A stretch of DNA of 33,362 nucleotides. Origin: Candidatus Dojkabacteria bacterium. GTDB taxonomy: Bacteria; Patescibacteriota; Dojkabacteria; SC72; JAFGCJ01. Of the stretch, positions 11,973 through 32,812 are shown in pieces (position 1 is the stretch's first letter; each line of letters starts with the position of its first letter). A program made the position numbers and the translations under genes. The notes under the pieces are model-generated. The model was not told the origin of the DNA and made no database searches. It saw nothing but the letters and a program-made list of their open reading frames with translations. The stretch lies in the NCBI GenBank assembly GCA_028696915.1, contig JAQVGB010000001.1, forward strand, positions 1 to 33,362, read 5' to 3'.

Positions 11973-11985
11973 ATCCCGCCATCAC

Positions 11986-12059
11986 CGCATCTAGGAGGAC
12001 TCGAACCTCCAACCTTTGGTTCCGAAGACCAACGCTCTATCCAATTGAGCTATAGATGC
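11986..12059 (-). tRNA. tRNA-Arg (anticodon UCG)
   Basis: Hand-folded cloverleaf on the minus strand: GCATCTA TA GCTC AATTGGATA GAGC G TTGGT CT-TCG-GA ACCAA AGGTT GGAGG TTCGAGT CCTCC TAGATGC, discriminator G. No CCA is encoded. Confidence 0.9.
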
Positions 12060-12072
12060 GGAGGTGGCGGGA

Positions 12073-12095
12073 TTATCCAATTAAGCTACGGGTGC
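12073..12095 (-). pseudogene. tRNA-Arg-like 5' fragment (acceptor 5' strand plus D-arm start)
   Basis: Minus strand GCACCCGTAGCTTAATTGGATAA: its first 15 nt (GCACCCGTAGCTTAA) are identical to the 5' end of tRNA-Arg(GCG) and similarity then weakens. Its acceptor strand is complementary to CGGGTGC in element R1. Confidence 0.55.
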
Positions 12096-12181
12096 ACACC
12101 ATGCTTGCTCAGACCATATGCGCTATAGAACGAACACCTCCTATCACTGCACTCTCTGCTCAGCAGACTGCAGATACTACA

Positions 12182-12625
12182 TCACGTGTATGTAACAGTC
12201 TGTATTGGCGCAACAACCGTGCCCTCCAAAAAGTTCTTCGTCACCAGTTTCATATCCTCGTGAACGATCTCGTCATTTGATATATTCCAGAATCGTTCAA
12301 GATCAAAATATCGCGCGTCCAGAACATTATCATCGCTAATCGTGACACCCTCGGATTCAGCCTTACATCCGAATACCAGATACAACGTCTTATCAACCGG
12401 AGTGACCGAAAGATACCCGGCAACCAGCCCTTCGACGCTCACCTTCACCCCACACTCTTCCATCACCTCCCGCTGAACCGCGTCACTAAGCGTCCGGTCC
12501 GAAGATTCCTCAAAGGTACCGCTTACTAAGTTCCACTTCTCAAGCTGAGCCGATTTGAGGCTTCTTTCACGAACAAGAAGGATCTTATTGCTCTTAATTA
12601 CGATGGCCCCGAACGTGATGGTCAT
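12182..12625 (-). CDS. NUDIX hydrolase
   Basis: Nudix box REVMEECGV is preceded by SGTFEESSDRTLSDAVQ, which has slightly longer G-to-RE spacing than the consensus. I take ATG 12625 (MTITFGAIVIKS...) as the start. The ORF track begins at a TTG at 12637, only 11 nt from the tRNA. Confidence 0.75.
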   Translation of the reverse strand: MTITFGAIVIKSNKILLVRERSLKSAQLEKWNLVSGTFEESSDRTLSDAVQREVMEECGVKVSVEGLVAGYLSVTPVDKTLYLVFGCKAESEGVTISDDNVLDARYFDLERFWNISNDEIVHEDMKLVTKNFLEGTVVAPIQTVTYT

Positions 12626-12647
12626 GCTATTTCGCAATTAATTCAAA

Positions 12648-12720
12648 CGCACCCGGCAGGATTCGAACCTGCAACCTTTGGTTCCGCAAACCAATGCTCT
12701 ATCCGTTAAGCTACGGGTGC
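12648..12720 (-). tRNA. tRNA-Arg (anticodon GCG)
   Basis: GCACCCG TA GCTT AACGGATA GAGC A TTGGT TT-GCG-GA ACCAA AGGTT GCAGG TTCGAAT CCTGC CGGGTGC, discriminator G. A promoter-like tttttgtaCTATAAGTGAGCGGcgt directly abuts the 5' end. Confidence 0.9.
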
Positions 12721-12777
12721 ACGCCGCTCACTTATAGTACAAAAACGTTCCGATGACAAGCTTCTCGTGCTATAGGT

Positions 12778-12842
12778 TGGCGCGATCGCACCTGGCAGGA
12801 CTCGCCTGTCCGCCTCCGGCGGGAACCTGCAATCCGATTTCC
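12778..12842 (-). pseudogene. tRNA-Arg(UCU)-derived T-arm and acceptor 3' fragment with a 19-nt hairpin insertion in the T-loop (element R2)
   Basis: Minus strand: TGCAGGTT + CCCGCCGGAGGCGGACAGG + CGAGTCCTGCCAGGTGC + GATCGCGCCA. The 17-nt 3' piece is identical to the 3' end of the adjacent tRNA-Arg(UCU). The insertion is at the same T-loop position as in R1 and is near-identical to it. Confidence 0.6.
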
Positions 12843-12854
12843 ACACCACTTCTT

Positions 12855-12927
12855 CGCACCTGGCAGGACTCGAACCTGCAACCTACTGCTTAGAAGGCAG
12901 TTGCTCTATCCGTTGAGCTACAGGTGC
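12855..12927 (-). tRNA. tRNA-Arg (anticodon UCU)
   Basis: GCACCTG TA GCTC AACGGATA GAGC A ACTGC CT-TCT-AA GCAGT AGGTT GCAGG TTCGAGT CCTGC CAGGTGC, discriminator G. Confidence 0.9.
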
Positions 12928-12958
12928 ATATGATGCGATTTATTCCAACGCCACGCGA

Positions 12959-17606: not shown

Positions 17607-20045
17607 CTACACAACGAGCGTTGCGATCTTTCCCGGCACATATATGAATTTCTTGACATCCTGCCCATCCAGACACCTCTGCACGCTATCCAGGGCCATC
17701 ACAGCCGCTCTGACGGTGTCCTCCGAAGCGTCAGGCGAGATGTTGACCTTGCCCCGAACCTTGCCATTAATCTGGACCGGGATCACGACGCTCTCCTGCT
17801 GGAGAAGTTTCTCGTCAACTTCTGGCCACGGCTGAGCATGCACGCTTCCATTTCCGCCAACCGCGCTCCAGAACTCCTCTGCCACATGTGGGACCATGGG
17901 AGCTATCGCGACAGCAATTTTCTGTAAATTCTCAATCGTGACCGGCTTCTCATGTGCGTCATTGTAAAATTCCATCAGGGCGGCAACTGACGTATTGAAC
18001 TTGCGCTGGGGCAATTCATCGGTCAATTGCCGGATGAGCCTGTTAACGGCGATCTCCACCCCCAGTTCGGACACATCGTCTGTTTTCTTTTTCGCGTTGG
18101 CATTTTCCATGAAGAATTTCCAGAACTTGCGCACGAATCGGTTCACGCCTTGGATCGCCCGGTCGCTCCATTCGACCGTGCCTTCGTGAGGTCCGGTGAA
18201 TAGCAGGTACAATCTGACCACATCAGCCCCGAACTTCTCCACAAGGTCATCGGGATTTATCACATTTCCGAGCGATTTCGACATCTTTGTTCCCCCCTCG
18301 CCAAGAAGCATACCGTGATTGCGCCGTGCCCGGTACGGTTCTTTGCCCGGAACAACACCGATATCGTTGAGAAATTTGTGCCAGAACCGCGAGTACAGCA
18401 GATGAAGCGTCACGTGCTCCGCGCCGCCATCGTAAAAATCAACGGGCATCCAGTAGTTGAGCTTCTCGGGATCGGCAATCGCCGTATCGTTGTCCGGATC
18501 GCAGAATCGGTAGAAGTACCAACTCGAGCCAGCCCAGTTTGGCATAGTGTCAGTTTCACGTTTTGCAGTCCCTCCACAAGTCGGACAGGTAGTGTTCACC
18601 CATTCGTCAATCGCCGCCAGCGGCGATTCTCCCGTTTCTGTCGGTTCATATGATTCGACATCGGGAAGAACGACCGGCAAGTCCTTTTCGGGGACCGGCA
18701 CCGTCCCGCATTTCTCACAAAAAACAACCGGGATCGGCTCGCCCCAATAGTGCTGACGGGAGAAAATCCAGTCGTGAATATTGTAACGGACTTCGGCATG
18801 ACCAATACCGTTCTCAACCAAGTGGTCCATAATTTTCTCACTCGCCTCGTCCACCGATAACCCGTCCAATATATCTGAATTCACCACGGTTCCCGCGTCA
18901 TGCTGGACCTCGGAGATCTTGTTGATCTCTCCGGTCTTCCCGTCTGGACCGACAATAACTCTTGCAACCGGCAATTTATACTGTGTTGCAAACTGGAAGT
19001 CCCGCTTATCATGGCCGGGAACACCCATCACCGCCCCTGTTCCAACGGTCATGAGCACGAAATCGGTCATCCAGATCTGTACTCGCTCCCCGTTGACAGG
19101 GTTGATCGCGTACAATCCTGTAAACACTCCGGTTTTCTTCATCTTCTCGTCAGCTCGTTCCTCGGGTGTTTTTCCCTGCGCTTCTTTTTTATAAGCGAGA
19201 ACAGTGTCCCGATACTCTTCCGGCACAAACTTCTTGTCCTCGTCAAAAATCGGGTGTTCCGGCGCGACGACTATGAATGTAACCCCATAGATTGTCTCGG
19301 GCTGGGTCGTGGATACCACAAGCTTCTGCCCAGTTCCCTCCACGTCAAATGAGATATCGATCCACGTTTTCCGTCCGATCCAATTTCGCTGAGCGGCTTT
19401 GATACTCTCCGGATAATCGACTTCGTCCAGCTCATCGGCCAACCGATCCGCATACGCAGTTATTTTCAGCATCCACTGGCTCAATTCTTTCATTTCAACT
19501 TCACTACCGCACCGCTCGTGCCTCCCGTTCACCACCTCTTCGTTCGCAAGCCCTACTTTGCATTTCGGACACCAGTTGATCGGCGCTTTCTCCTTGTACG
19601 CAAGTCCATTTTCTAAAAATTTTAAAAATATCCACTGCGTCCACTTGTAGTAGGAAGGTTCCGTTGTATCGATCTCCCGACTCCAGTCAAATGAATATCC
19701 CATCATTTTCAATTGCCGGCGGAAGTTGTCGGTATTTTGCTTTGTGACAACTTTTGGATTAATTTTGTGCTTGATCGCGTAGTTTTCTGTCGGCAGGCCG
19801 AACGCATCCCACCCCATGGGGAACAGTACGTTATATCCCTGCATCCGCTCGAAACGCGCCAATACGTCAATCATCGAGTATGTGCGGCAGTGGCCGATGT
19901 GCACACCGTCTCCAGACGCATACGGAAATTCGACCAGAATGTACTTTTTAGGCTTATCCGCAAAGTCGACTGCGCGGTACAGATTCGAATGTTCCCACTC
20001 ATTCTGCCACTTAGGGTCGATTTGTTTGTGGTCGTACTCTTTCAT
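17607..20045 (-). CDS. leuS: Leucine--tRNA ligase
   Basis: 812 aa. HIGH motif (DGVHIGHCRTY), KMSKS motif (GTKMSKSLGNV), a CP1 editing region and bacterial-type organisation. Confidence 0.95.
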   Translation of the reverse strand: MKEYDHKQIDPKWQNEWEHSNLYRAVDFADKPKKYILVEFPYASGDGVHIGHCRTYSMIDVLARFERMQGYNVLFPMGWDAFGLPTENYAIKHKINPKVVTKQNTDNFRRQLKMMGYSFDWSREIDTTEPSYYKWTQWIFLKFLENGLAYKEKAPINWCPKCKVGLANEEVVNGRHERCGSEVEMKELSQWMLKITAYADRLADELDEVDYPESIKAAQRNWIGRKTWIDISFDVEGTGQKLVVSTTQPETIYGVTFIVVAPEHPIFDEDKKFVPEEYRDTVLAYKKEAQGKTPEERADEKMKKTGVFTGLYAINPVNGERVQIWMTDFVLMTVGTGAVMGVPGHDKRDFQFATQYKLPVARVIVGPDGKTGEINKISEVQHDAGTVVNSDILDGLSVDEASEKIMDHLVENGIGHAEVRYNIHDWIFSRQHYWGEPIPVVFCEKCGTVPVPEKDLPVVLPDVESYEPTETGESPLAAIDEWVNTTCPTCGGTAKRETDTMPNWAGSSWYFYRFCDPDNDTAIADPEKLNYWMPVDFYDGGAEHVTLHLLYSRFWHKFLNDIGVVPGKEPYRARRNHGMLLGEGGTKMSKSLGNVINPDDLVEKFGADVVRLYLLFTGPHEGTVEWSDRAIQGVNRFVRKFWKFFMENANAKKKTDDVSELGVEIAVNRLIRQLTDELPQRKFNTSVAALMEFYNDAHEKPVTIENLQKIAVAIAPMVPHVAEEFWSAVGGNGSVHAQPWPEVDEKLLQQESVVIPVQINGKVRGKVNISPDASEDTVRAAVMALDSVQRCLDGQDVKKFIYVPGKIATLVV

Positions 20046-20058
20046 AGAGGTGCATTCT

Positions 20059-20093
20059 AAAATAAAAACAAAAAACCTCCCTTTCGGGGAGGC
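20059..20093 (-). terminator. Intrinsic terminator of the leuS leader (attenuator segments 3:4)
   Basis: Minus strand: aaGCCTCCCcgaaaGGGAGGtTTTTTTGTTTTTATTTT. It ends 13 nt upstream of the leuS ATG (20045). Confidence 0.75.
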
Positions 20094-20128
20094 TTATCGG
20101 AACAAACCGGCGGTCAGAAGCCTCCCGC

Positions 20129-20182
20129 TTATGAGCGAAGGAGAAGGAGGCCCAGCTTTGCAATACCCGCGGTATCTATCAT
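20129..20182 (-). CDS. 17-aa leucine-rich leader peptide MIDTAGIAKLGLLLLRS
   Basis: ATG ATA GAT ACC GCG GGT ATT GCA AAG CTG GGC CTC CTT CTC CTT CGC TCA TAA. It has four consecutive Leu codons and starts 10 nt after the TATAAT box. Confidence 0.6.
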   Translation of the reverse strand: MIDTAGIAKLGLLLLRS

Positions 20183-20192
20183 ATTGAAGGAA

Positions 20193-20221
20193 ATTATATG
20201 GGGGGAATGAAGGAATGTCAA
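20193..20221 (-). promoter_or_regulatory. Consensus sigma70-type promoter TTGACA-17-TATAAT for the leuS leader
   Basis: Minus strand: TTGACA (20221..20216), 17-nt spacer ttccttcattcccccca, TATAAT (20198..20193). Confidence 0.75.
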
Positions 20222-20338
20222 AAAAAGCCGCAGGTCCGACCTGAAGTTCCCAGAAAAGTGATATACTCCAAAAGCTCATGGAAACTGTAGAAACAATCAA
20301 GAAAAGATATTCCTGCCGGGACTCTCTTTAAAAACATC

Positions 20339-21205
20339 ATGAACAATACCCTCCCGCCTATCACAAAAAATCACAAGAGTATCAAGTATCCATTTCACAC
20401 CTATACCCCCTCAGATCTACACAACAAGCACATTCTCATACTGGGACATGGATCCATAACTTCGCCGGACATTGTCGAAGAATCAGCACGTATGTTTTCA
20501 AGTTTCACCAAAGATTTTGAGAAGTACGGAATCGCCGCGCTCATGCCCGTCCTTCCAAGGAAAGTTGGTCCCAATCCCAGTCAGTATCTCGATTCCCAGA
20601 TACTGGAACGAGCCGTTATGATAGACACATGTGATCCGTACTACGCGAGACCTGACAAGGAGATCGTGAAGATGATCGTTTTGTTTCAGAGAGAACTCAG
20701 AGAGAAAGGTTATAACATCTCAGACACGGTATTTTTTTCCGGGGCGTCCGCAGGAGCATGCATGGCACAACGTATGGCTGTTCTATACCCGGATATCGTC
20801 GCCGGTACAGCAATCTTTCTATCAGGGATATTTTTGTACCCGGAAAAAGAACTGGAATCAGTTGAACTGACGTACCCGTTTGGTGTCAGCGATATCTCAG
20901 CCCTCGACGGGACACAATTCAACAAAGAATTATCTCTAAAAATACCCCAGTATATATTTGTAGGGGAGCAGGAGACTCGCGGCGGACCCTTCGATTTTGA
21001 GATTCGAAGCCAGTTAGGGCGGATTGAGGAATTTAGAAAGGTTCTCGGGGAAAATCCCTTGGAGATGACCCAAAAGTATCTGGACTATCTAAAAAAACAG
21101 AATACCCCTTTTGATGCGGTAATTAAGAAAGGCGTGGGTCACGATTGCTCCGGTTCTGATTTCAGAAAAGGATTTGAGTATATTATTGAAAACGGGTTGA
21201 AGTGA
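20339..21205 (+). CDS. Alpha/beta-fold hydrolase (esterase-like)
   Basis: Contains ILILGHG (HG oxyanion motif), the nucleophile elbow FSGASAGA (G-x-S-x-G) and a C-terminal GVGHD candidate catalytic His. An extended -10 TGaTATACT lies at 20259..20267. No closer family assignment is possible by eye. Confidence 0.6.
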   Translation: MNNTLPPITKNHKSIKYPFHTYTPSDLHNKHILILGHGSITSPDIVEESARMFSSFTKDFEKYGIAALMPVLPRKVGPNPSQYLDSQILERAVMIDTCDPYYARPDKEIVKMIVLFQRELREKGYNISDTVFFSGASAGACMAQRMAVLYPDIVAGTAIFLSGIFLYPEKELESVELTYPFGVSDISALDGTQFNKELSLKIPQYIFVGEQETRGGPFDFEIRSQLGRIEEFRKVLGENPLEMTQKYLDYLKKQNTPFDAVIKKGVGHDCSGSDFRKGFEYIIENGLK

Positions 21206-21815: not shown

Positions 21816-21889
21816 TGGACCCGGCGAGATTTGAACTCGCGACCCCCTCAATGCCATTGAGGTGCTCTAGCCAACTGAGCTACGGGCCC
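21816..21889 (-). tRNA. tRNA-Ala (anticodon GGC)
   Basis: GGGCCCG TA GCTC AGTTGGCTA GAGC A CCTCA AT-GGC-AT TGAGG GGGTC GCGAG TTCAAAT CTCGC CGGGTCC A. The G3:U70 alanine identity pair is present. Confidence 0.9.
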
Positions 21890-21992: not shown

Positions 21993-24900
21993 CTACTCAG
22001 GTGTCCAAACTCCCGATCCGTTGATAACACGCACAAAGTACGCTTCAGTTCCGGAAATCGGAAAGTCAAAGCCGTACACCTCCTGTGTCCCGCCGTCGCC
22101 GGTCTCCACCTGCAAACCGCTGTACCGCGAACGAACCGCTTCCCACTCTGACAAATTATCCGCCTGTACTACTCCTGTCAGATTCACCCCATCTATCACC
22201 GATGCCGCAGTATACGACTCGCCAACGCCATGAACCGACACGAGATTCCAGCCCTCAATAAGTCCAATCGGGACTGGTTCGGCCACCCCCTTCCCTTCCA
22301 GGCGTACCAATATATCTGCACTTGAACGAATGACATACCCCTTTCCGGGTAGTATCTGAAAGTCGTTTGAACCGTAGATCGTTTCCCCCCGTTGTTCAAT
22401 CACCTGCCACTGCCCACTTTCATACGAGGCGATAGAGTAAAAGGAACCGCCGTATACTTCATTGAGATTAACCAGAACTTCAACAGCCGTAGTTCCAATA
22501 TCTTCGTTCAAAAAAGGAAACGACACAAAGTTGAAACCTTGTGATATATCATAGTAAAAGCTCAAGTTCTCTTGGGTTACCGTAATCCCCGTCGCTCTCG
22601 AGATATCAATATCTCTTTCATCGAATAATCCATTTTCGTTTACGTCCACATATATCACCGCCTGCCCCCCGGCATTGACATAGAAACATAGTGTCCCATA
22701 TCCCTCAATTCCATCGACGCAGTACTTACCCGGTTCTGGGAATAGCATTATTCCAGTTTCAGGGTCAATGATGACGTCCTGACTATCACTCTGAGCGTGC
22801 ACCCTGAAGTAATTGCTCAGAAGCGATGCTCTTTTCTCAACGCCAATCACCGCCTCCCGCAAACTTGCAATAACTCCACTCCCATCGATAACTATTTGTG
22901 AATTCTCACCTGACGGTGGATCGCACTTACAGTCACCCAGATCACTGCACTGACAGACATATCCTTTTGTATTACAAATCTGCCCGGGTTCGATACGCTG
23001 TTTTACCCAACAGCCGGGTGTAGTAATATTCGGGCACCAATCGTTTAGTTCGATACTGTAAAATGCCGCGTGTTCGCAATTACACTGTTTAGCCTTGCAC
23101 TGTTCTCCTTTTGATACATCTGCCCAAGCGGGGATCTCCGGCGGGGTACCTCCCCCACACGCTTCACCCGGAGCAATAACCGAATTTGTTTCGTCACAGT
23201 AGCAACCAACATTGGTTCCTGTCAGACTCACATCAACAGGACATGATCCCTCTGAAATTTTCTCCTGCCATACGCCTCCAGTACAGACATACTTTCTCGA
23301 TCCTGATTCGCGGACTTGTCCACTGCATTTATCGCCGCACGCCTTCCCCTCCCCACTGAAATCACATCCAGAACCGCCCCCTGAAGGAGGTGTAGCAGGA
23401 GAAGAACCACCGGTGGCGTCGGTCGAATTGCTTGTACTTGAGGAACTTCCTGATTGTTTGCATTCATAGCAAAGCTGATAGCTCACTACCACCGGCGCAC
23501 ATCGGGGACACAAAGCGCCCCCATCCGGTGTTTCCGTTCCCTCGAGCCCTCCACACGTATCATCCGGATAATACGAGCCTACACACACTTCAGACGGAGG
23601 TGGTGGAATTTGACCCGGAATATCATCCGCATCGATAAACGGACAGGTTTCCGTGCACTCTACGAAATCATATAACCGTTCATCAATATTGCAGTAACAC
23701 CCATCACCATCAAGACACTTTTGATTCCGGGATTTTGAACCCTCATTACCATCTACAGGACATTCAGAACCACCCCCGGACGGAATGGCATCACCACTCC
23801 CCGACCCATCTCCACACCCTCCACAGCAATCGCTCGATGCCTTCCACGTACCATCGGCCTGACAGGTCGCCCACGAACACTTCGGATCCCTACTACCGCC
23901 TTCGCCGCTGGTCCAACAGTCGTATTTATCTGGTCCACAGCGAACTTCTCCGCACCCACCCCCACCCGACGATGGTTCCTGTTCCTCACCTCCGGTATAA
24001 CAACAGCGGATATTCGCACTGCCCGGACATAAACCGATCTTTATCGTTCCCGCGCCATTATTACAAGAATCTCCGCTACTCTTTCCCGGAGCGGAAATAC
24101 ACTCTCCCGGAACTCCATAACAGGAACAACCGGCAAAATCGGCATCAGTGCAACCGGACTGGTTTGGATCCTCACAACAGCTCGTTGATCCCTCCGAATG
24201 GGGAGAGTCCGAGCTTGAATCTGTATCTGTCTCCGTATCGGAAGAGGACGAGTCGTCATCCGAATCATCCCCAGAAGCGTCGTTCTCGTCAATACAACAC
24301 TTAATGTTTATCGGCTGAGTGGGACACAATCCTGATCGTACCTTTCCTGAACAATCATTCTCATTCATACATTGGCCCCCCACTGCCTCACACTCCGGCT
24401 CCTGATATGCCGCTTCCACATATGACACCAGGCTCCCACCGCCCTTTGATTCCACGACGTCCTGCTCCTCCTCCATCACAATCGGATCGGCTGGGGCATC
24501 CATCGTCATAGGAATCGTCACCTCTTGTGGAACAAATCCCGGTGCTTCAACAAGAAGATATTCTTCATCTGTGTTTTCATCCACTCCCCCAAACTCGGCT
24601 CCATCAAACGCACGAAACCCTGAAATATCAATATACCAGCTTCCGTTATCCGCAAGCACTGCAGACAAGGGCTCGCTTGGCAGTTCATTAATACGCATAT
24701 AAATCACACCATCTGGAATATCACCGGCCGGTGACACAATCTTTCCATATGCGGGATTGGGAACCCGCATATCTTCGAGATCGGCAAATGTCGTGAACGA
24801 ATTTACTGATGCCGTTGGAAATCCGCCGGACGTGTCCATCTCCCATGATTTTGAGAACCTGAATCCATTCCCGACCATGAAATAGTATGTCTGCTCAGGA

Positions 24901-25442
24901 TCTAGCCCCGACACAGTCACGTGATGTGCAAAATACTCGCCGACTGTTTTCACAACCACATCCTCGGCAACCGTCAGATAATCGATCTTTGCTCCTCCAT
25001 TGCCTTCCTGTAGAGAATCCCGCATGTTTTGCGCCGCATCCAGTCGGGCGCGGATGACATCACGGTCATCCACTGCAATTTCTTTCCCAATTTTTGAGAA
25101 AAAAAGCGGGTAAAACTGGTCGGTCGTTCCATAGACCACATAGCCTTTCGTCGCCTCATCAGTCACCCAGCTAATCGTTGCGGAACGTCCGGTCACATTA
25201 GTCACACGCACCCTTTTCGGGGCAGAGAAATTCTCGGACAATCCTACATAGACAACAAATGCGATCGTGAGGACAAATACCACCAAACTCAGCCCCACAA
25301 CGAACCTGTTCGGAGAAATCTTCATCCTCAGCCGCTTCAACGCGGGCTTCTGCAACACTGTAACCGGTTCGGGAGCAGGTGGCACAGTATCGGGAGTACC
25401 GGGCACATTCGCAGCCGGAACATCAGGGACAGTCTGATCCAT
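21993..25442 (-). CDS. Membrane-anchored Fn3-headed, cysteine-rich modular surface protein, paralog 1 (1149 aa from ATG 25442)
   Basis: Pro-rich N-terminal tail, KRLRMK, then a TM segment (FVVGLSLVVFVLTIAFVVYVGL). Fn3/purple-acid-phosphatase-N-like domain (VRVTNVTGRSATISWVTDEATKGYVVYG...HHVTVSGLDPEQTYYFMVGNG). 54 Cys lie between aa 351 and 840 (counted from the track translation). The C-terminal domain is shared with paralog 2 and ends GSGVWTPE. The start is set at MDQ (25442) because a TTGACA-17-TATGCT promoter and an AGGA box lie inside the longer track ORF, whose extra 60 aa look non-protein-like. Confidence 0.8.
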   Translation of the reverse strand: MDQTVPDVPAANVPGTPDTVPPAPEPVTVLQKPALKRLRMKISPNRFVVGLSLVVFVLTIAFVVYVGLSENFSAPKRVRVTNVTGRSATISWVTDEATKGYVVYGTTDQFYPLFFSKIGKEIAVDDRDVIRARLDAAQNMRDSLQEGNGGAKIDYLTVAEDVVVKTVGEYFAHHVTVSGLDPEQTYYFMVGNGFRFSKSWEMDTSGGFPTASVNSFTTFADLEDMRVPNPAYGKIVSPAGDIPDGVIYMRINELPSEPLSAVLADNGSWYIDISGFRAFDGAEFGGVDENTDEEYLLVEAPGFVPQEVTIPMTMDAPADPIVMEEEQDVVESKGGGSLVSYVEAAYQEPECEAVGGQCMNENDCSGKVRSGLCPTQPINIKCCIDENDASGDDSDDDSSSSDTETDTDSSSDSPHSEGSTSCCEDPNQSGCTDADFAGCSCYGVPGECISAPGKSSGDSCNNGAGTIKIGLCPGSANIRCCYTGGEEQEPSSGGGGCGEVRCGPDKYDCWTSGEGGSRDPKCSWATCQADGTWKASSDCCGGCGDGSGSGDAIPSGGGSECPVDGNEGSKSRNQKCLDGDGCYCNIDERLYDFVECTETCPFIDADDIPGQIPPPPSEVCVGSYYPDDTCGGLEGTETPDGGALCPRCAPVVVSYQLCYECKQSGSSSSTSNSTDATGGSSPATPPSGGGSGCDFSGEGKACGDKCSGQVRESGSRKYVCTGGVWQEKISEGSCPVDVSLTGTNVGCYCDETNSVIAPGEACGGGTPPEIPAWADVSKGEQCKAKQCNCEHAAFYSIELNDWCPNITTPGCWVKQRIEPGQICNTKGYVCQCSDLGDCKCDPPSGENSQIVIDGSGVIASLREAVIGVEKRASLLSNYFRVHAQSDSQDVIIDPETGIMLFPEPGKYCVDGIEGYGTLCFYVNAGGQAVIYVDVNENGLFDERDIDISRATGITVTQENLSFYYDISQGFNFVSFPFLNEDIGTTAVEVLVNLNEVYGGSFYSIASYESGQWQVIEQRGETIYGSNDFQILPGKGYVIRSSADILVRLEGKGVAEPVPIGLIEGWNLVSVHGVGESYTAASVIDGVNLTGVVQADNLSEWEAVRSRYSGLQVETGDGGTQEVYGFDFPISGTEAYFVRVINGSGVWTPE

Positions 25443-25470
25443 ATGATTCCTGGAACATATAATCAATTCC

Positions 25471-25499
25471 AGCATACGCAAACACGAAATCCTTGTCAA
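25471..25499 (-). promoter_or_regulatory. Putative promoter TTGACA-17-TATGCT of paralog 1
   Basis: Minus strand: TTGACA (25499..25494), spacer aggatttcgtgtttgcg, TATGCT (25476..25471). AGGAAtcATG follows. Confidence 0.55.
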
Positions 25500-25769
25500 A
25501 CTGCTGGTGGACTGGAAATCGCACGTTTTGTTCGAAAATTCCCGATCTACACTCCTAACCTCAAAAAAACGTCCTGTCATACACCACAGAAACGGGGACA
25601 CGATGACGTCCCCTCGGCGCATCTATGTCCCCGGATTCCCCCTCGATTCCAACAATACAGAATCCGGATGAAAAGATCCTAACAAAAGTATGACAGGATA
25701 ATTACCCGAGAGAGTCGGGACAGGCCAGCACATACCGGCCAAAAACGTTTTCACCACGACACGTTTCGT

Positions 25770-28691
25770 CTACTCGGGCGTCCACACCCCGCCGCCCGCC
25801 GAAATTCTGACGAAGTACCCGCGCCCAGTTTCCAACGGAAAATCGAAACCGTACACTTGAGCGCCGGTTTTCTGCAGGCCCTCGTACCGGGACACAGGCG
25901 CATCCCACTTAGTCACGTTATCAGCGGTCGCTCCTTCAATCGCGTTGATGCTATCGATCAGGCTTTCGGCGGTGTAGATCCTTCCCGCGCCGTTAATACC
26001 CATCAGATGCCATCCGGGAACGTTGAAGTCCACGGGAGCCGGAGCCGTCAGTGAATACCCGGCAAGAAGCAATTCCATGTCAACAAACGATCTCAGCACA
26101 TATCCACGGCCGGGAACAACAGGGAAGCAGTCCCCGGAAACGGTCCCTGTATCGCGACGGTACGAAGTCGCCTGAAACTTCCCGGACTCAAATCGCCCGA
26201 CCATAGTCACCCCCAGATCCGTTGTCACAGCGTTCATATCAACAATAAGCTCACACGAATCCGTCAGGGCTGGAAGGTACTCGAACGAGACGAAATTTAA
26301 CCCTTCGGAAACGGTCAACTCAAACGTGCTTTCCGTCGTATCGACCGTTACCTCTAACAGAGTACTACAAAGATCAAGTTGTTTTTCGTCACCATCCATC
26401 ATACCATTCCCGTTATCATCAACAAAAAGCGTGTATCCCTGTCCCTCGACAAGACGGACACTCTCGACGACCCCGACACCGGGGACCGTCACACTGTATA
26501 GACCGTTTTCATCTGGCGTCATAACAAGACAGTCCGTTACGGTATACGAGGCTTCTGCGGCATGAACGGAGGGAACAAGCCGCGAGGAAGATGTTCCAAG
26601 TGCGGATTTGGAAGAAGTTCGTTGGGCGACGGCTCCGAATCGGCGGTTTTCTTCACCGGCATGCCCTCCCGGGCGAATCGGTATTGAACCTCCCCGGCTA
26701 CTACTTCCACCTGTATCACGATCCGTGCCGCCGTTCGCAGACGCCGGTTGACATGCCCCCTCACCACAGGATTCATAACCACTATTTGGGAATTCAAACG
26801 CCGCACAATCTTTGTATTCAGAAAGCGTCTCGTCGACTGATTCACCATGCTCATACCAACAACAGCATCTCTTCGTATTTCCTTGTCCTGCATTCGCAGA
26901 GTTCTCCTGAGAAGCAACCACACAACAACCAAAACCCTCCTGACATCCATGACCTTTCTTAAAGTCTCCTCCCTCACATGCCTTAGCGATATTACAAGTC
27001 CCATTTTTTCCATTGATAGCACAGCTATCACCAATATTCTTTTCAATCTTCTCGGCACAACATACAACTTCGGCGCCACCCGGACAGTGCCCCGGAACGA
27101 AGTCCTTCGGCGATTCACACGATTCTCCTGCACTTTTATCCAGACACTCTCCGGTATGATAGTTCGATGGCGTACAGTCTTCCCCTACACCTACTTTCGT
27201 GTCTTCCGTCTGGTCACTCGGCCTCCCAGATTGGTCAGAATCCTGGCCGGGACCTTCCGCATTGCTAGAAACACATTTATTCTTGTCATTGCAAATCAAC
27301 CCCTCACAACACCCACCCTCCTTATTACACGCCTCACCCACGTCACTACACAGCTCATTTCCCTCTGCACACTTACCACAGCCATGCGCCTGACAGTCGT
27401 TATATCCCTTCTTCCAATCATCCTCAGAATCACACTGACCACCACCAAGAGCCTCATTTCTCCATCCACTATCATCACAGCAGTTGTTTGCTGCCACGAC
27501 ATACGACACCAGCCCTCTCCCGCTACTTTCTTCTGTTTCTGGGCTATCGGCATCCAAGCCGTCCGCTGAGGACACCGTGATCACCCGCGCCGGAGCATTT
27601 TCATTAAGATGAATATTGACTGGAGTAGAGGCAAGATCCGATCCGGCAACGACATACACATTTTCAAGATCACTCTCCTCATCAAATGCTACCACCTCGC
27701 CGCTCACCGACCGCACATTCGCCAGATCAAGATACCACCGTCCCTCTTCGTTCAATGTCGCCGAAACCGGAGCCGACTGCGTTTCCGCACCATTGTAGTA
27801 CACAACCGCATACGAAATCCCGTCCACAGCCGCCGACCCGTCCTCTGAAACGACACTCCCGTACGATGGATCCGGAACAGCAAGGTCCTCAACCATGGCA
27901 ACTGTCACAAACACATTCTCCTGCGACACCGTGTAGCGATCATTAGCAAACGTGTCCAATTCCGCACTAAACCATAACCCCGATCCTACCGCGAAGTAGT
28001 ATTGTTGCTCTGGATCCAGCCCGGTCAGCGTCACATGATGTGTATAGTAATTATTCAAATCGGGAGCCATCGCATCATACCCGGCAGGCACCATAGAGAC
28101 ACCCTCTGTGCCACTGATATCTGCATAGTACTCAAGCTCCGCCTTGCTGACGTCCCTGTCATCATAGGCAAGTTTACTTCCAAATCTCGCAAGCACACCC
28201 GGAAGAAAACTCTGATCTTGAGAATACACGACCACACCCGGGGTCGGTTTGTCGGTCCGCCACGAAATAGTCACGGATTGATCAGTCACATTCGTTACGC
28301 GGATATCTCGAGGAGCGCTATAGGTGACTACCGTCCACACGGCAAAACCAGCAATTGATAGGAAAACGGCCCCAGCCAACAAAAGCAGGAGGGCCTTCAG
28401 AATCGAGCGGTTCCCTTTCGGTTGCTCTGATTGGGAATGCACGGATTGTGGTGGCTCAACTGGAGCGGGTTGTGTTGGTGCAAGATTAGCCTGCGGCAGT
28501 TCAACGTGCGGCACCGCAGCCTGCACACCAGCAGGTTGCGGAACATCAGGTTGACCTAACGACTGGGCCTGTTCTTCTTTTTCAGCACCCGACACCTGGT
28601 CGACTAGAGCCTTTGAATCCTGGACCGGAGGAGAACCAGGAGCATTTGACGAAGAAACCTGACCGGAAGAATTGCTCTCTTCTGGATTCAT
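25770..28691 (-). CDS. Membrane-anchored Fn3-headed, cysteine-rich modular surface protein, paralog 2 (973 aa)
   Basis: A ~95-aa Q/P/S-rich tail precedes the TM segment (ILKALLLLLAGAVFLSIAGFAVWTVV). Fn3-like domain (IRVTNVTDQSVTISWRTDKPTPGVVVYS...HHVTLTGLDPEQQYYFAVGSG). 30 Cys lie between aa 404 and 647. The C-terminal domain is colinear with paralog 1 (PGWHLMGINGAGRIYTAESLID...QVYGFDFPLETGRGYFVRISAGGGVWTPE). Confidence 0.85.
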   Translation of the reverse strand: MNPEESNSSGQVSSSNAPGSPPVQDSKALVDQVSGAEKEEQAQSLGQPDVPQPAGVQAAVPHVELPQANLAPTQPAPVEPPQSVHSQSEQPKGNRSILKALLLLLAGAVFLSIAGFAVWTVVTYSAPRDIRVTNVTDQSVTISWRTDKPTPGVVVYSQDQSFLPGVLARFGSKLAYDDRDVSKAELEYYADISGTEGVSMVPAGYDAMAPDLNNYYTHHVTLTGLDPEQQYYFAVGSGLWFSAELDTFANDRYTVSQENVFVTVAMVEDLAVPDPSYGSVVSEDGSAAVDGISYAVVYYNGAETQSAPVSATLNEEGRWYLDLANVRSVSGEVVAFDEESDLENVYVVAGSDLASTPVNIHLNENAPARVITVSSADGLDADSPETEESSGRGLVSYVVAANNCCDDSGWRNEALGGGQCDSEDDWKKGYNDCQAHGCGKCAEGNELCSDVGEACNKEGGCCEGLICNDKNKCVSSNAEGPGQDSDQSGRPSDQTEDTKVGVGEDCTPSNYHTGECLDKSAGESCESPKDFVPGHCPGGAEVVCCAEKIEKNIGDSCAINGKNGTCNIAKACEGGDFKKGHGCQEGFGCCVVASQENSANAGQGNTKRCCCWYEHGESVDETLSEYKDCAAFEFPNSGYESCGEGACQPASANGGTDRDTGGSSSRGGSIPIRPGGHAGEENRRFGAVAQRTSSKSALGTSSSRLVPSVHAAEASYTVTDCLVMTPDENGLYSVTVPGVGVVESVRLVEGQGYTLFVDDNGNGMMDGDEKQLDLCSTLLEVTVDTTESTFELTVSEGLNFVSFEYLPALTDSCELIVDMNAVTTDLGVTMVGRFESGKFQATSYRRDTGTVSGDCFPVVPGRGYVLRSFVDMELLLAGYSLTAPAPVDFNVPGWHLMGINGAGRIYTAESLIDSINAIEGATADNVTKWDAPVSRYEGLQKTGAQVYGFDFPLETGRGYFVRISAGGGVWTPE

Positions 28692-28862: not shown

Positions 28863-28935
28863 TGGACCCGGGCGGAATCGAACCGCCAACCTCTACAATG
28901 CGAATGTAGCGCTCTGCCAGTTGAGCTACGGGCCC
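28863..28935 (-). tRNA. tRNA-Ala (anticodon CGC)
   Basis: GGGCCCG TA GCTC AACTGGCA GAGC G CTACA TT-CGC-AT TGTAG AGGTT GGCGG TTCGATT CCGCC CGGGTCC A. G3:U70 is present. Confidence 0.9.
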
Positions 28936-29020: not shown

Positions 29021-29464
29021 CTATAACCATAAAGGTCGCGCATGCACCCGTAACCATCGGTAATCGTAATACTTTGTGACCAGTTTGAGTTTGACTGGAT
29101 TATTCTGCAAATATGCCCTTAGTCTCTTCCAATCTGTGTGGGCCGGAACATGCTTTGCCTGGTATCTCCCTTGAAAAACATGCCCCACCAGCCTATTCCG
29201 ACGATTAATATAGATGGTATACGAAATCCCCATACCCTGCATGAATTTGGGAATAGACCCGTCCATCAGCGGTTTCAACGCAAAGTGAAAATGATTAGGA
29301 AGTAGGCAATAGGCAATCACCTTAACCTTGAATCTATGAGAATATTTCCGTACTAGGCCAAGAAAAACTTCGTAGTCCCGCTCACGATAAAAGATGCTCT
29401 TCTTTCTGTTTCCCCTATTATAAATATGGTATATCTGGCCCTGAAAGAATTCGATGCGTCGCAT
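29021..29464 (-). CDS. IS200/IS605-family Y1 (HUH) transposase-like protein, REP-associated-tyrosine-transposase-like
   Basis: IYHIYNRGN, the HUH motif LLPNHFHFAL, GHVFQGRY, and a catalytic Tyr context RAYLQNNP. ATG 29464 is preferred over the track's GTG 29470. TATACT at 29476..29471 lies 6 nt upstream. Confidence 0.7.
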   Translation of the reverse strand: MRRIEFFQGQIYHIYNRGNRKKSIFYRERDYEVFLGLVRKYSHRFKVKVIAYCLLPNHFHFALKPLMDGSIPKFMQGMGISYTIYINRRNRLVGHVFQGRYQAKHVPAHTDWKRLRAYLQNNPVKLKLVTKYYDYRWLRVHARPLWL

Positions 29465-29602
29465 TCCCACAGTATATAGCCCACTTGTTACGGAACCATT
29501 ACGTACCGGTGTTAAGATCCAACCCGCACTCCTATCGGCCTACATCCCGGATCACATATCCCACGGAAAACCCACAACAAGAAGAAAACACGAAGATCCG
29601 AT

Positions 29603-30784
29603 CTAATACCCGCACACGTGGATATCCATATATGGCGCCGGGTTGATCCGCGATGCCCAGCCAACCCCCGCCCGAAGTTCGAAGTGCACATGGACCCCCG
29701 TCGCAAGACCGGTCGCTCCCATATTCCCTATCACCTGCCCCTTCGCAACATACTGCCCGGAAACAACCGCAATCGATGACATATGCGCATACCACGTCGT
29801 ATAGCCATTTCCATGATCGATCTGCACCGACCACGCGTACCCCCACGGATCGCTCATGCCGGCAAAGATCACGGTCCCTGCCGCAGACGCTATCAATGGC
29901 GGGTACGACGAGTTTGCGATGTCGATGGCCATATGCCACGCACTCGGACATTGGGTTACCAACCCCAACCCGCCCGAAACCGGCCACCCCAAAAATCTAG
30001 AAGCAGAAGGATCAGCCGGAGGAAGTGATGGTGTCGGATAATTCACCGATCCGGCATTCGATCCGACTGACGCAATTGGTGTCGGCGGGGCCGGAGGTGG
30101 CGGCATGGTTCCTTCTGGAATAAAGAGTGTCTGACCCTCGACAAGGTTAAACGGCGGATCAAGCCAGTTCACATCCGCAATCGCTTGCTCCGCTGCATTG
30201 TACTTTCCGGCAACAGATGACAATGTGTCGCCACTGGAAACAGTATGAATAACACCATTACCCGGAGGAATTTTAAGCTGATCTCCGGGACGAATAAAGT
30301 CGTATGCACTCATATCGTTCGCCCAGAGCAATGTCTGAGAACTCACGCCGTGCCGCTCAGCTATGACACTGATGGTATCCCCGCCTTGGACAGTATAGGT
30401 GATAATATCCAACCTCGAGCGGCCTTTTGGTACAAGCGTCTGGGACGATCCCCGCTCAACCAGCAAGTCAGTTTCGGAAACCGCCTGAACGGGTTCCGCT
30501 TCGGCAAGTACCTGAGAAGAAAGTTGCTTATGCTGGAGTGTAAATGGAAGAACCCCCACCGATATCAGGATCGTGGCGACAACAACCAGCCGGTACCAAC
30601 TGCCGCGCCCCCAGAATACATACCGCATGAGTCCCCTCTTGATCGAGTCCAGACTGCTGATAGTTACTTCTCCCGCAACAGACAACACGACAATAATTTG
30701 TCGAAATCGCATGAAAAGATAGAGAAAAATCTCCCGGGAAAAACCTGCCAACTCATGACCCAGAGCGGATCTTTGCTGTTCCAT
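29603..30784 (-). CDS. LysM-LysM-M23 family metallopeptidase (peptidoglycan hydrolase)
   Basis: Two LysM repeats (YTVQGGDTISVIAERHGVSSQTLLWAN...GDQLKIP and HTVSSGDTLSSVAGKYNAAEQAIADVN...GQTLFIP). M23 motifs are HMAIDIAN, IDHGNGYTTWYAHMSS and GVHVHFELR. An N-terminal TM segment is present. Confidence 0.88.
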   Translation of the reverse strand: MEQQRSALGHELAGFSREIFLYLFMRFRQIIVVLSVAGEVTISSLDSIKRGLMRYVFWGRGSWYRLVVVATILISVGVLPFTLQHKQLSSQVLAEAEPVQAVSETDLLVERGSSQTLVPKGRSRLDIITYTVQGGDTISVIAERHGVSSQTLLWANDMSAYDFIRPGDQLKIPPGNGVIHTVSSGDTLSSVAGKYNAAEQAIADVNWLDPPFNLVEGQTLFIPEGTMPPPPAPPTPIASVGSNAGSVNYPTPSLPPADPSASRFLGWPVSGGLGLVTQCPSAWHMAIDIANSSYPPLIASAAGTVIFAGMSDPWGYAWSVQIDHGNGYTTWYAHMSSIAVVSGQYVAKGQVIGNMGATGLATGVHVHFELRAGVGWASRINPAPYMDIHVCGY

Positions 30785-31082: not shown

Positions 31083-32339
31083 TTACCCGATGCTCTCGTG
31101 CAGAGTCGCAAGGAATTCCTGGTTGCTCTTGGTCTTTCTGAGCCGCTCAACCAGGACTTCGGTTGCACCTTCTTCCTGGGGGAGCGCTTCAAGCATACGC
31201 CTGACACGCCAGGACTGATTAAGCACTTCCTTATCGAGCAGAAGCTCTTCATGGCGGGTTCCCGAACGGACGACATCAATGGCAGGATACACTCGCCGCT
31301 CGGCAAGGCGCCGGTCGAGGTGCAGTTCCATGTTGCCGGTGCCCTTGAACTCCTCGTATACAAGATCGTCCATGCGGCTACCGGTATCGATCAGTGCAGT
31401 TGCAATAATCGTAAGGCTTCCACCGTTTTCGATGTTTCGTGCCGCACCGAAGAACCGCTTTGGCGGGAACAATGCAACCGGGTCGAAACCGCCCGACAAG
31501 GTCCGTCCTGATGTCGGCATCGTAATATTGTATGCGCGTGCAAGACGGGTAATGCTGTCCATCAGAATGACAACGTTCCGCCCTGCCTCTACCATTCTTT
31601 TGGCCTTCTCAAGTGCCATTTCCGCGACTTTGCAGTTATCCTCAGGCCGTTCGTCGAAGTTGCTTGCAAACACCTCACCCTTCACCGACCGCTCGATATG
31701 GGTCACCTCCTCCGGCCGTTCTCCGACCAATACGACCATCAGGTCGACATCTTTCTGATTCTCGGTAACACCGGCAGCGATATCGAGTAGAAGCCACGTT
31801 TTACCCGCTTTCGGCGGGGACACGATCATACCGCGCTGTCCGAAGCCGATCGGACTGAGCAGGTCGATAATACGGGTCGACAGCTTGTCTGATTCGGTTT
31901 CCAGAATAATTTGCTTATCGGGAAAAATTGGGGTCGATTTCTCAAATCGGGGACGGTCCATAATTGAAAGCGGATCCATACCCCAAACCGAGTCCACCCG
32001 CAATAGCGAGCGGTATTTCTCGTTATCTTTGGGAGGCCGGGCCGGGCCTGCAATGAGATCTCCGGTCTTGAGCCGGAATTTCTTAATCTGAGTACCGGAG
32101 ACATAGGCGTCGTGCTCTCCCTGAAGTAATCCTTCTGTCCGAAGTACCCCATGGGTGCTGTCGTTCATGACCTCGAGAACGCCTGACGCGTAATCGTAAC
32201 CCTCTTTCTTGGCGACATGGCGCATGATGTTCATGATCACCTCACTCTTGTCATCCGCACCGCCATCGGTAACGTCGAGTTTTTTTGCAAGAAGTTTCAA
32301 CTGCGGAACCGTCTTTGCGTTAAGCTCACTGAAATTCAC
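31083..32339 (-). CDS. rho: Transcription termination factor Rho (GTG start)
   Basis: Rho_N-like N-terminus (NFSELNAKTVPQLKLLAKKLDV), an RNA-binding OB region, Walker A SPPKAGKT, and a RecA-type ATPase core running to the ...RLRKTKSNQEFL tail. Confidence 0.93.
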   Translation of the reverse strand: MNFSELNAKTVPQLKLLAKKLDVTDGGADDKSEVIMNIMRHVAKKEGYDYASGVLEVMNDSTHGVLRTEGLLQGEHDAYVSGTQIKKFRLKTGDLIAGPARPPKDNEKYRSLLRVDSVWGMDPLSIMDRPRFEKSTPIFPDKQIILETESDKLSTRIIDLLSPIGFGQRGMIVSPPKAGKTWLLLDIAAGVTENQKDVDLMVVLVGERPEEVTHIERSVKGEVFASNFDERPEDNCKVAEMALEKAKRMVEAGRNVVILMDSITRLARAYNITMPTSGRTLSGGFDPVALFPPKRFFGAARNIENGGSLTIIATALIDTGSRMDDLVYEEFKGTGNMELHLDRRLAERRVYPAIDVVRSGTRHEELLLDKEVLNQSWRVRRMLEALPQEEGATEVLVERLRKTKSNQEFLATLHESIG

Positions 32340-32488: not shown

Positions 32489-32508
32489 ATAAGCGTAGTT
32501 GCTTTGCG

Positions 32509-32550
32509 AAAAAAGGAAAAACGGGATCGGTACTGCCCCAACCGACCCCG
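32509..32550 (-). terminator. Strong intrinsic terminator ending the radA-rho intergenic transcript
   Basis: Minus strand: CGGGGTCGGT, loop tggggcagt, ACCGATCCCG, then TTTTTCCTTTTTT. The stem is 10 bp with one G.U. Confidence 0.75.
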
Positions 32551-32628
32551 ACCACTAAATCCTCTATGGACCTACCGGTCGAGGTATAACACAACAGTTA
32601 TTTCCCGAAAAGAAGAGCGATGCGCGAA

Positions 32629-32746
32629 CTTTTCCGAGGGACCAGTCGCAGGTATTCCCTACGCCAGACCCTGGGAAAAATCCGCGCGGGTAGACTTTTC
32701 CGAGGGACCAGTCATAGCTGTTCACTATACCAGACCCTGGGAAAAA
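32629..32746 (-). repeat. Two direct repeats (period 66 nt) with conserved arms and a variable 16-nt centre
   Basis: Plus-strand units 32629..32680 and 32695..32746 share cttttccgagggaccagtc and ccagaccctgggaaaaa exactly. The centres are gcaggtattccctacg and atagctgttcactata. Confidence 0.95.
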
Positions 32747-32783
32747 CCTGCCCGCCGACACTTAGTTATTGAAGAACATGTAC

Positions 32784-32812
32784 ATTATATCCTATAGCCT
32801 TACCGGTGTCAA
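32784..32812 (-). promoter_or_regulatory. Consensus promoter TTGACA-17-TATAAT for the intergenic RNA
   Basis: Minus strand: TTGACA (32812..32807), spacer ccggtaaggctatagga, TATAAT (32789..32784). A second candidate, TTGACA-18-TACTAT, lies at 32862..32833. Confidence 0.7.

Follow-up and report, generated by a model that had tools for sequence, protein, structure and literature searches.

What controls leuS, the leucyl-tRNA synthetase (LeuRS) gene, in a bacterium of the Candidate Phyla Radiation (CPR; Patescibacteria)? The question arises on a 33,362-nucleotide (nt) stretch of contig JAQVGB010000001.1 from Candidatus Dojkabacteria, which we analysed whole and call the window. Between a consensus promoter and leuS, its minus strand carries a short leucine-rich open reading frame (ORF) followed by RNA segments that can pair in alternative ways, the last pairing being an intrinsic terminator. 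In our view the leader is probably a transcription attenuator of the ribosome-mediated, leader-peptide type, matching leuS expression to how much charged tRNA-Leu is available. Judged from its layout, the cell would most likely make more LeuRS when charged leucine tRNA runs short. The case is built on the sequence elements themselves, their conservation, their spacing and the thermodynamic feasibility of three RNA conformers.

The leader is compact and complete (Table 1). Its promoter scored 12/12 in a consensus scan, and only about 0.004 perfect TTGACA-17-TATAAT sites would be expected by chance in the whole window. The mini-ORF runs from an ATG at 20182, 10 nt past the -10 box, to a TAA at 20131..20129. 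It encodes five leucines, four of them consecutive; the remaining leucine has a CTG codon at 20155..20153. CUU and CUC, which make up the consecutive run, are the commonest leucine codons in the window's genes and account for 48% of them. Segment 1, with its core GGCCUCC at 20152..20146, lies within the coding sequence, and segments 2 to 4 follow the stop codon. The intrinsic terminator at 20095..20059, a 9-bp stem of AAGCCUCCC/GGGAGGUUU plus a U-tract, stands between the mini-ORF and leuS, and its U-rich tail ends 13 nt before the leuS ATG (20045). The downstream gene is identified as leuS by the Pfam domains tRNA-synt_1, LeuRS editing domain and Anticodon_1. No other leader-like mini-ORF was found in the window. 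The initial annotation of this DNA had described the same promoter with an ATG 10 nt on, the 17-codon ORF with four consecutive leucines and a CTG, the four segments, a terminator ending 13 nt before the start codon and leuS beyond it; on reading the minus strand, every one of these was recovered where it had been placed.

Table 1. Features of the leuS leader in the window, and leader peptides found at the same place in related loci.
Feature	Position	Strand	Remarks
-35 hexamer TTGACA	20216..20221	(-)	direct reading and consensus scan
-10 hexamer TATAAT	20193..20198	(-)	17-nt spacer from the -35 hexamer
Predicted transcription start, purines	20184..20185	(-)	8-9 nt after the -10 box; from promoter geometry
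Leader-peptide ORF MIDTAGIAKLGLLLLRS plus TAA stop	20129..20182	(-)	17 codons
Putative regulatory Leu codons CUC CUU CUC CUU	20138..20149	(-)	codons 12-15
Segment 1, GGGCCUCC	20146..20153	(-)	on the Gly-Leu-Leu codons; anti-antiterminator arm; from minimum-energy folds
Segment 2, GGGAGGCUU	20118..20126	(-)	2 nt past the stop codon; partner of segment 1 or 3
Segment 3, AAGCCUCCC	20087..20095	(-)	5' arm of terminator and 3' arm of antiterminator
Segment 4, GGGAGG plus U-rich tract UUUUUUGUUUUUAUUUU	20059..20081	(-)	3' arm of terminator and tail
leuS	17607..20045	(-)	putative regulated gene; leucyl-tRNA synthetase, 812 aa; from Pfam
Leader peptide of L015			MIKPVFRNNLLSLLLR
Leader peptide of L016			MKEIKTCNNLSLLLRIF
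Leader peptide of L017			MITTNSFNSLFGLLLLS
Leader peptide of L019			MTEIRTLSHLLGLLLSL
Leader peptide of L021			MEDSKSCNSLLNLLLSAI
Leader peptide of L022			MTARKNYSPLSLLLAL
Leader peptide of L023			MMARQIHSLFSLLLAQ

The same unit precedes leuS across a clade of relatives. The nine LeuS proteins closest to that of the window in a large protein collection are all metagenomic and 62-67% identical to it. The next tier holds hundreds of proteins at 54-58%, of which the named ones are called Candidatus Dojkabacteria or WS6, and a pattern scan of GTDB representative genomes yielded LeuS relatives of at most 44% identity (Saccharibacteria, Planctomycetota and DPANN archaea). These matches place the window in a thinly sampled CPR/Patescibacteria lineage close to Dojkabacteria. 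We sampled the contigs of the nine closest proteins, of which eight had readable DNA (P0008 was left out). Comparing leuS upstream regions in relatives had been suggested as a check in the initial annotation. In seven of the eight readable relatives (L015, L016, L017/L018, L019, L021, L022 and L023), mini-ORF, leucine run and terminator lie in the same layout directly upstream of leuS. With the window included, eight of nine sampled clade members thus carry a Leu leader before leuS, and these are the eight leaders compared below.

Conservation follows the parts that an attenuator would use. The TATAAT box is invariant in all eight leaders and the ATG always lies 9-10 nt beyond it; in the relatives the -35 hexamer reads TTGACA, TTTACA or TTGACG, at a spacing of 17-18 nt. 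The mini-ORF is 16-18 codons long and its frame is open in 8/8. An x-LLL motif occupies codons 11-15, with LLL beginning at codon 12 or 13 in every leader. Leucine makes up 24-41% of the eight peptides versus 7.4% in the window's genes (P = 0.0001-0.03 for each). The in-frame stop always falls just before segment 2 (8/8). In the seven leader-carrying relatives, a Shine-Dalgarno (SD)-like purine block comes right past the stop, and a CCUCC-loop-GGAGG hairpin with U5-7 follows. From ATG to the end of the T-tract the leaders measure 109-124 nt, and the distance from terminator to leuS is variable, at 6 to 101 nt.

Outside these parts the leaders have drifted apart. The N-terminal halves of the peptides are unrelated among loci, the loop between segments 2 and 3 is unalignable, and the rest of the leader has diverged past alignment across the clade. 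Length differences before the leucine motif are nonetheless 0 or 3 nt, which keeps the reading frame. Selection acting on a leader peptide that is translated and sensitive to position would be predicted to leave such a pattern. Genes farther upstream differ among the loci, the window's own upstream gene being divergent, and the leader unit thus appears to travel with leuS.

Folding yields three states that correspond to the positions of a ribosome. RNAfold places the whole window leader in a combination of helix 1:2 and the 3:4 terminator at -39.8 kcal/mol. Helix 1:2 spans 8 bp (GGGCCUCC/GGAGGCUU, with two G-U pairs), stacked on a 4-bp inner hairpin; here the 7 bp given in the initial annotation need correcting, while its 3:4 terminator and its helix 2:3 of nine perfect bp stand. 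A ribosome covers about 15 nt from its P-site, and we simulated ribosome positions by masking the RNA through that distance. Folding the alternative conformers, another of the checks initially suggested, gave the three states in all eight leaders. Without a ribosome, the RNA at minimum energy adopts 1:2 together with the terminator. When a ribosome sits on the leucine run and segment 4 is still to be made, the fold is the 2:3 antiterminator, at -12.6 to -24.1 kcal/mol. With the RNA masked for a ribosome at the stop codon, the terminator alone remains. Folded singly as hairpins, 2:3 comes to -12.6 to -21.8 kcal/mol, no less stable than 3:4 at -9.3 to -14.8 kcal/mol, and helix 1:2 to -6.3 to -14.9 kcal/mol.

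Segment 2 keeps its place relative to the stop codon. Of the sequence past the stop, the stretch that pairs best with segment 3 has its end 10-15 nt beyond the stop in 8/8 leaders, and the segment 2/segment 3 duplex beats shuffled controls at P = 0.003-0.078 per sequence. All helices draw on the same CCUCC/GGAGG core, which in the terminator, together with U5-7, is invariant in 8/8. Sensor codons and segment 1 are in effect one sequence, because the CUY codons supply the pyrimidines that face the GGAGG of segment 2 in the helix.

Pairs in the three helices were counted on an alignment of the leaders. A plain MAFFT alignment of the leaders (A2) mis-registered the helices and was replaced by an N-padded one (A3), which was anchored by hand on the cores, so that the pair counts it gives are biased towards the proposed helices: 80.5% of helix 2:3 is paired, versus 41-60% when the strands are slid; 92% of cells in helix 1:2 are paired, in a single fixed register, versus 48-72% when slid (8 sequences); and helix 3:4 is 84% paired with an invariant core. 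In helix 2:3, five pairs have changed on both sides, and its covariation of 0.299, versus 0.217, was reached in 19 of 500 shuffles. Since every helix contains the invariant core, true covariation is limited to the flanks. RNAalifold run on A3 independently predicts 1:2 plus 3:4.

Among the loci compared, the leader family is specific to this clade. A covariance model (R1) built from the seven relatives alone (alignment A4, window excluded) matched the window over its full length, model positions 1-130, at 20071..20182 on the minus strand (39.4 bits, E 1.6e-8). Run on 95 control loci (477 kb in all), the same model gave no match with E under 0.5. The controls comprise L020, the eighth readable relative, and 94 other bacterial or archaeal leuS loci; among them are 80 generic metagenomic leuS loci (LeuS 42-52% identical), retrieved with two peptide patterns that occur throughout bacterial LeuS, and leuS loci from GTDB genomes (at most 44%). 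A screen for the bare architecture, a Leu-run mini-ORF with hairpin and T-run before leuS, retrieved 7/7 clade loci versus 2/92 others. One of those two (L060) proved on inspection to be a T-box leader; the ORF of the other (L080) has 35 codons with the leucine run at its start, unlike the clade peptides. Scanning viral contigs for the leader pattern returned 21 matches, all of them ordinary gene ends with CCUCC/GGAGG terminators and none a leader.

Searches with known RNA families found no competing model. No Rfam family reached its gathering threshold in the window or the relatives. The best sub-threshold match, Phe_leader (RF01859), scored 18.5 bits in the window where 55 are required (E 1.9), and most of that score came from the terminator; Leu_leader (RF00512) had no match there at E up to 10. 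T-box (RF00230) had no match at gathering threshold in the window and 10 related loci, and none in 19900..20500 at E of 10 or less. A T-box or other riboswitch for the leuS leader was accordingly rejected on the lack of an Rfam match, in agreement with the T-box absence reported initially.

Two neighbouring features of the leader deserve separate mention. The GGGAGG of segment 4 was considered as a ribosome-binding site for leuS and ruled out, as it lies 30 nt upstream of the ATG. On the far side of the promoter, a small hairpin, CAGGTCGGACCTG, followed by a T-run (20225..20243, minus strand) abuts the -35 box; it could be a terminator for upstream or antisense transcripts, or a T-rich UP-like element.

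Can a mini-ORF with so little in front of it be translated? Directly upstream of its ATG we found no SD-like sequence. Across the window such sequences are near absent, at most 4 of 15 long ORFs having even a 4-mer match: AGGAG occurs only before 29603..30784, three other ORFs have a 4-mer, and there is none before leuS. It appears that the organism depends on initiation without an SD, and since most window genes are without SD-like sequences, their absence before the mini-ORF is no obstacle. Lack of an SD, together with an ATG 9-10 nt after the -10 box, points to leaderless or near-leaderless translation of the mini-ORF. Across the leaders a purine stands 7-8 nt after the -10 box, which would give a 5' untranslated region (UTR) of 2-4 nt; in the window leader, with purines 8-9 nt after the box, it would be about 2-3 nt, near-leaderless. 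As for termination, no other intrinsic-terminator-like site in the window's 33 kb is as strong as that of the leuS leader, yet this one sits within a 5' leader, and hardly any of the window's terminator-like hairpins lie at gene ends.

From these parts a working cycle can be proposed. A sigma-70-type consensus promoter would yield an RNA with only about 2-3 nt ahead of its AUG, and a ribosome would load without a Shine-Dalgarno sequence and translate the 17-codon peptide. When Leu-tRNA(Leu) is scarce, the ribosome would stall on CUC-CUU-CUC-CUU and cover segment 1. Segment 2, left free, would then pair with segment 3 as soon as this is made (9 bp, about -17.7 kcal/mol), the terminator would be blocked, and RNA polymerase would continue into leuS. 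When Leu-tRNA(Leu) is plentiful, the ribosome would get to the UAA and mask segment 2; if no ribosome has loaded, segment 1 would pair with segment 2 instead. In either case the 3:4 hairpin and U-tract would form and end transcription 13-24 nt before the leuS AUG. The initial annotation had proposed this same attenuation logic, with no mention of near-leaderless translation, and the layout in 7/8 relatives, the three conformers in 8/8 leaders and the lack of an Rfam competitor support it.

Several observations weigh against this reading. Translation of the mini-ORF, the transcription start, ribosome stalling, termination and read-through in vivo and the response to leucine are all steps that we infer. 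The 9-10 nt gap implies a UTR of 2-4 nt, not a strictly leaderless AUG, and in E. coli leaderless translation is reduced by short 5' extensions. By fold energy the window leader is unexceptional for its composition (z = -1.16), and for that reason the single window sequence proves nothing alone; the case for more than chance rests on conservation in relatives, position-specific complementarity and the leave-one-out model R1. Terminator-like hairpins in the window are not enriched over shuffled sequence (12 versus 17.4 expected, 12 versus 5.9, and 16 versus 12.9). To the hand anchoring of A3 must be added a sample of eight sequences and a covariation that is modest. Energies of cognate versus non-cognate segment 2/segment 3 duplexes do not differ significantly (P = 0.14), since most of the energy comes from the G+C-rich core that all of them contain. 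Nor is the element universal among related bacteria. The relative L020 (LeuS P0006, 63% identical) has neither a Leu mini-ORF nor a terminator in its spacer, 984..1200; a tRNA gene lies 217 nt upstream of its leuS, and the leader looks to have been lost or replaced within the clade. Both sampled Dojkabacteria lineages (P0023 and P0036; loci L104-L107 and L108-L111) also lack the element.

Could the same parts serve another purpose? Promoter, mini-ORF and terminator might be a small gene in their own right, its product a hydrophobic micropeptide or a small RNA, that only happens to lie next to leuS; leuS would then have a promoter of its own beyond the terminator. Such a unit would be self-complete, with a strong promoter, an ORF and a strong terminator, and its distance from leuS ranges from 6 to 101 nt. 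Candidate downstream promoters exist as well: a putative extended -10 motif, TGnTAnnnT, stands just past the U-tract in 5/8 leaders, which also counts against attenuation as the sole control, and the window has a TAGAAT 8 nt before the leuS ATG. The region concerned is 20046..20072 (minus strand) of the window and its equivalents in L016, L019, L021, L022 and L023; examples of the motif are TGGTATAAT in L021 and TGTTATAGT in L019. Because the motif recurs in 5/8 leaders, leuS might be transcribed also, or instead, from a second promoter; the motif may be a weak promoter for basal leuS expression or a product of chance, since -10-like motifs are expected to occur by chance in A/T-rich sequence. 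We regard an independent gene as very unlikely: the unit invariably sits next to leuS, on its upstream side and in the same orientation, although the genes beyond differ, conservation of its peptide is limited to the leucine run, and segment 2 keeps its position and its complementarity to segments 1 and 3, which a stand-alone gene would not need.

The helices might instead be real and be flipped by a factor in trans, whether LeuRS, uncharged tRNA-Leu or another protein, while the mini-ORF goes untranslated. Precedents exist, as aaRS genes (those for aminoacyl-tRNA synthetases) elsewhere are controlled by tRNA, through the T-box, or by the enzyme itself, as with thrS. The missing SD and a predicted 5' UTR of 2-4 nt, not ideal for leaderless initiation, would also suit an untranslated mini-ORF, and since CUY CUY is needed by the CCUCC-like strand facing GGAGG, conservation of the leucines could be partly structural. 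Structure gives no role, however, to the extra leucine codons (UUA, UUG, CUG) upstream of the pairing segment, and an untranslated ORF leaves unexplained an ATG fixed 9-10 nt from the -10 box, a frame open in 8/8, length differences of 0 or 3 nt and a stop placed before segment 2. With most window genes lacking an SD anyway, no T-box match at E up to 10 and a leader of about 110 nt that is too short for a T-box, control in trans strikes us as no less improbable than an independent gene. We give still less credence to a constitutive partial terminator, or a relic, that damps a very strong promoter to a fixed level and senses no leucine. The ordinary fold energy (z = -1.16) and the fact that L020 and the sampled Dojkabacteria manage without the element speak for such a damper; yet the leucine run, the spacing from stop to segment 2 and the three-way complementarity have been kept while other leader sequence was randomised, and the leave-one-out match is significant.

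A related design precedes histidine genes in the same clade. In L017, just downstream of leuS, a TATAAT is followed after 9 nt by an ATG opening the mini-ORF MLNSMFNTVKLHHHHSHVFAGL (4462..4545), then by tRNA-His(GUG) at 4713..4789 and hisS at 4892..6217. L133 has a His mini-ORF, MRTDGSYNQVHHHHSH, in the same position and with the same TATAAT-9 nt-ATG design (1541..1685), before tRNA-His(GUG) at 1779..1854 and hisS at 1897..3219; its histidyl-tRNA synthetase (HisRS) is 72% identical. The HisRS of one relative matches proteins named Patescibacteria, Dojkabacteria and Shapirobacteria. Such His leaders (...HHHHSH) were thus present in 2/2 sampled relatives, lying between leuS and the tRNA-His-hisS pair. 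The L133 leader forms a 1:2 hairpin on its His codons, then a CAGACC/GGUCUG terminator with U6 (fold z = -3.37), and its segment 2, UGGUCUG, is complementary to segment 3, CAGACCA. The terminator of the L017 His leader is less clear. Because His-codon leaders precede tRNA-His and hisS, the same design appears to serve a second amino acid in the clade.

How new is the leuS leader? The initial annotation knew of no leader-peptide attenuator for leuS, and that claim fails because Streptomyces leuS leader peptides were published earlier. Seliverstov et al. (2005, PMC1262725) predicted classical leuS attenuators, with leader peptide, antiterminator and terminator, for S. avermitilis and S. coelicolor. 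A 2021 re-annotation of S. lividans TK24 described LeuL2, MRAVRLLLSEPR, upstream of leuS on a leaderless transcript and followed by a hairpin and U stretch, and leader peptides also before alaS, thrS and trpS (alaL, thrL and trpL2; PMC8079986). Like these, the leader described here encodes a short Leu-run peptide directly upstream of leuS (here ...L-x-LLL...), and a hairpin with a U stretch comes after the peptide, which is reported as leaderless there and predicted to be near-leaderless here; hairpins for antitermination and termination were predicted in Streptomyces as well. The differences lie in lineage (CPR/Patescibacteria here, Actinobacteria there), in peptide length (16-18 residues versus 12 in LeuL2), in an ATG 9-10 nt from the -10 box that implies a 2-4 nt UTR, and in helices built on an SD-like GGAGG/anti-SD-like CCUCC core. 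The comparison is with the published peptide and description; we take the resemblance to be functional and assume an independent origin.

Actinobacterial short ORFs offer a wider parallel. The leaderless alaL, thrL and trpL2 of S. lividans are likewise sensors enriched in one amino acid upstream of a related gene, and several aaRS genes per genome share the design there, as leuS and tRNA-His/hisS do in the present clade. Some of the actinobacterial cases have no obvious terminator, unlike the canonical intrinsic terminator here, and the lineage differs. Mycobacterial polycysteine leaderless upstream ORFs are similar short ORFs built on cognate codons.

In its logic the leader resembles the enterobacterial trp, leu, his, thr, pheA and pheST attenuators. 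They share the four-segment scheme with regulatory codons in segment 1, a stop just before segment 2, a 2:3 antiterminator and a 3:4 intrinsic terminator, and pheST applies that logic to an aminoacyl-tRNA synthetase operon (PMC1262725). The window leader falls outside the Rfam Leu_leader and Phe_leader families. Leaders of the enterobacterial kind come with an SD sequence and a 5' UTR of greater length; in Salmonella and E. coli, the leu leader uses rare CUA codons. The window leader, by contrast, has no SD and uses CUY, the commonest leucine codons. With the T-box, the usual means of aaRS control in Firmicutes, it shares an outcome, an aaRS raised when the cognate tRNA is poorly charged, and a choice between antiterminator and terminator. 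The T-box, however, senses uncharged tRNA directly, without translation, and its leader, which carries a specifier loop and the T-box sequence, measures at least about 200 nt. The mechanism proposed here is thus a textbook one with a direct leuS precedent in Streptomyces, and it is unreported in the CPR group as far as we found: the literature searched contained no report of attenuation or leader peptides in CPR/Patescibacteria.

If the attenuator works as proposed, it would tell us something about the biology of these bacteria. Leaderless initiation, coupling of ribosome and RNA polymerase, and intrinsic termination would all have to operate in the lineage, and working leaderless translation and transcription-translation coupling would be implied for the clade. 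CPR bacteria generally cannot make their own amino acids, and the leader predicts that an organism which presumably takes up its leucine from outside adjusts LeuRS supply to the charging of its leucine tRNA. To our knowledge they have few known regulators. They are uncultured or hard to culture and their regulation is essentially unexplored, which makes a conserved, legible switch an entry point. The design also supplies an annotation marker: a consensus promoter followed after 9-10 nt by an ATG mini-ORF with a codon run should make leaders for other amino acids findable. We came across no cis-regulatory RNA switch reported from CPR bacteria. The broader proposal, that this CPR clade uses near-leaderless cognate-codon mini-ORFs as a general device for matching aaRS and tRNA gene expression to charging, one that evolved independently of proteobacterial and actinobacterial attenuators and is possibly the first CPR cis-regulatory RNA switch, seems to us evenly balanced between right and wrong.

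The window holds other features apart from the leader. A second perfect TTGACA-17-TATAAT promoter lies at 32812..32784 on the minus strand, upstream of rho (31083..32339, minus strand). The roughly 270 nt after it (32505..32812, minus strand) contain a tandem pair of long, almost identical hairpins, UUUUUCCCAGGGUCUGG...GACUGGUCCCUCGGAAAAG, as well as a third hairpin and one that resembles a terminator. This region folds with a minimum free energy of -120.6 kcal/mol (z = -7.07; 0/200 shuffles as stable), had no Rfam family match, and is a candidate structured RNA or repeat element. Three tRNA-Arg genes (TCG, GCG and TCT) lie around a NUDIX gene, and there are two tRNA-Ala genes (GGC and CGC), the second adjoined by an IS200-like Y1 transposase ORF; the coordinates of this tRNA, NUDIX and transposase group are 11985..12928, 21816..21889, 28863..28935 and 29021..29470, all on the minus strand. 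The plus strand carries a very large ORF of 2892 aa at 609..9287. Two adjacent paralogue-like ORFs, at 21993..25622 and 25770..28691 on the minus strand (1209 and 973 aa), have only Pur_ac_phosph_N or fn3-type domains, and proteins with the same domain flank leuS in L019 and L021.

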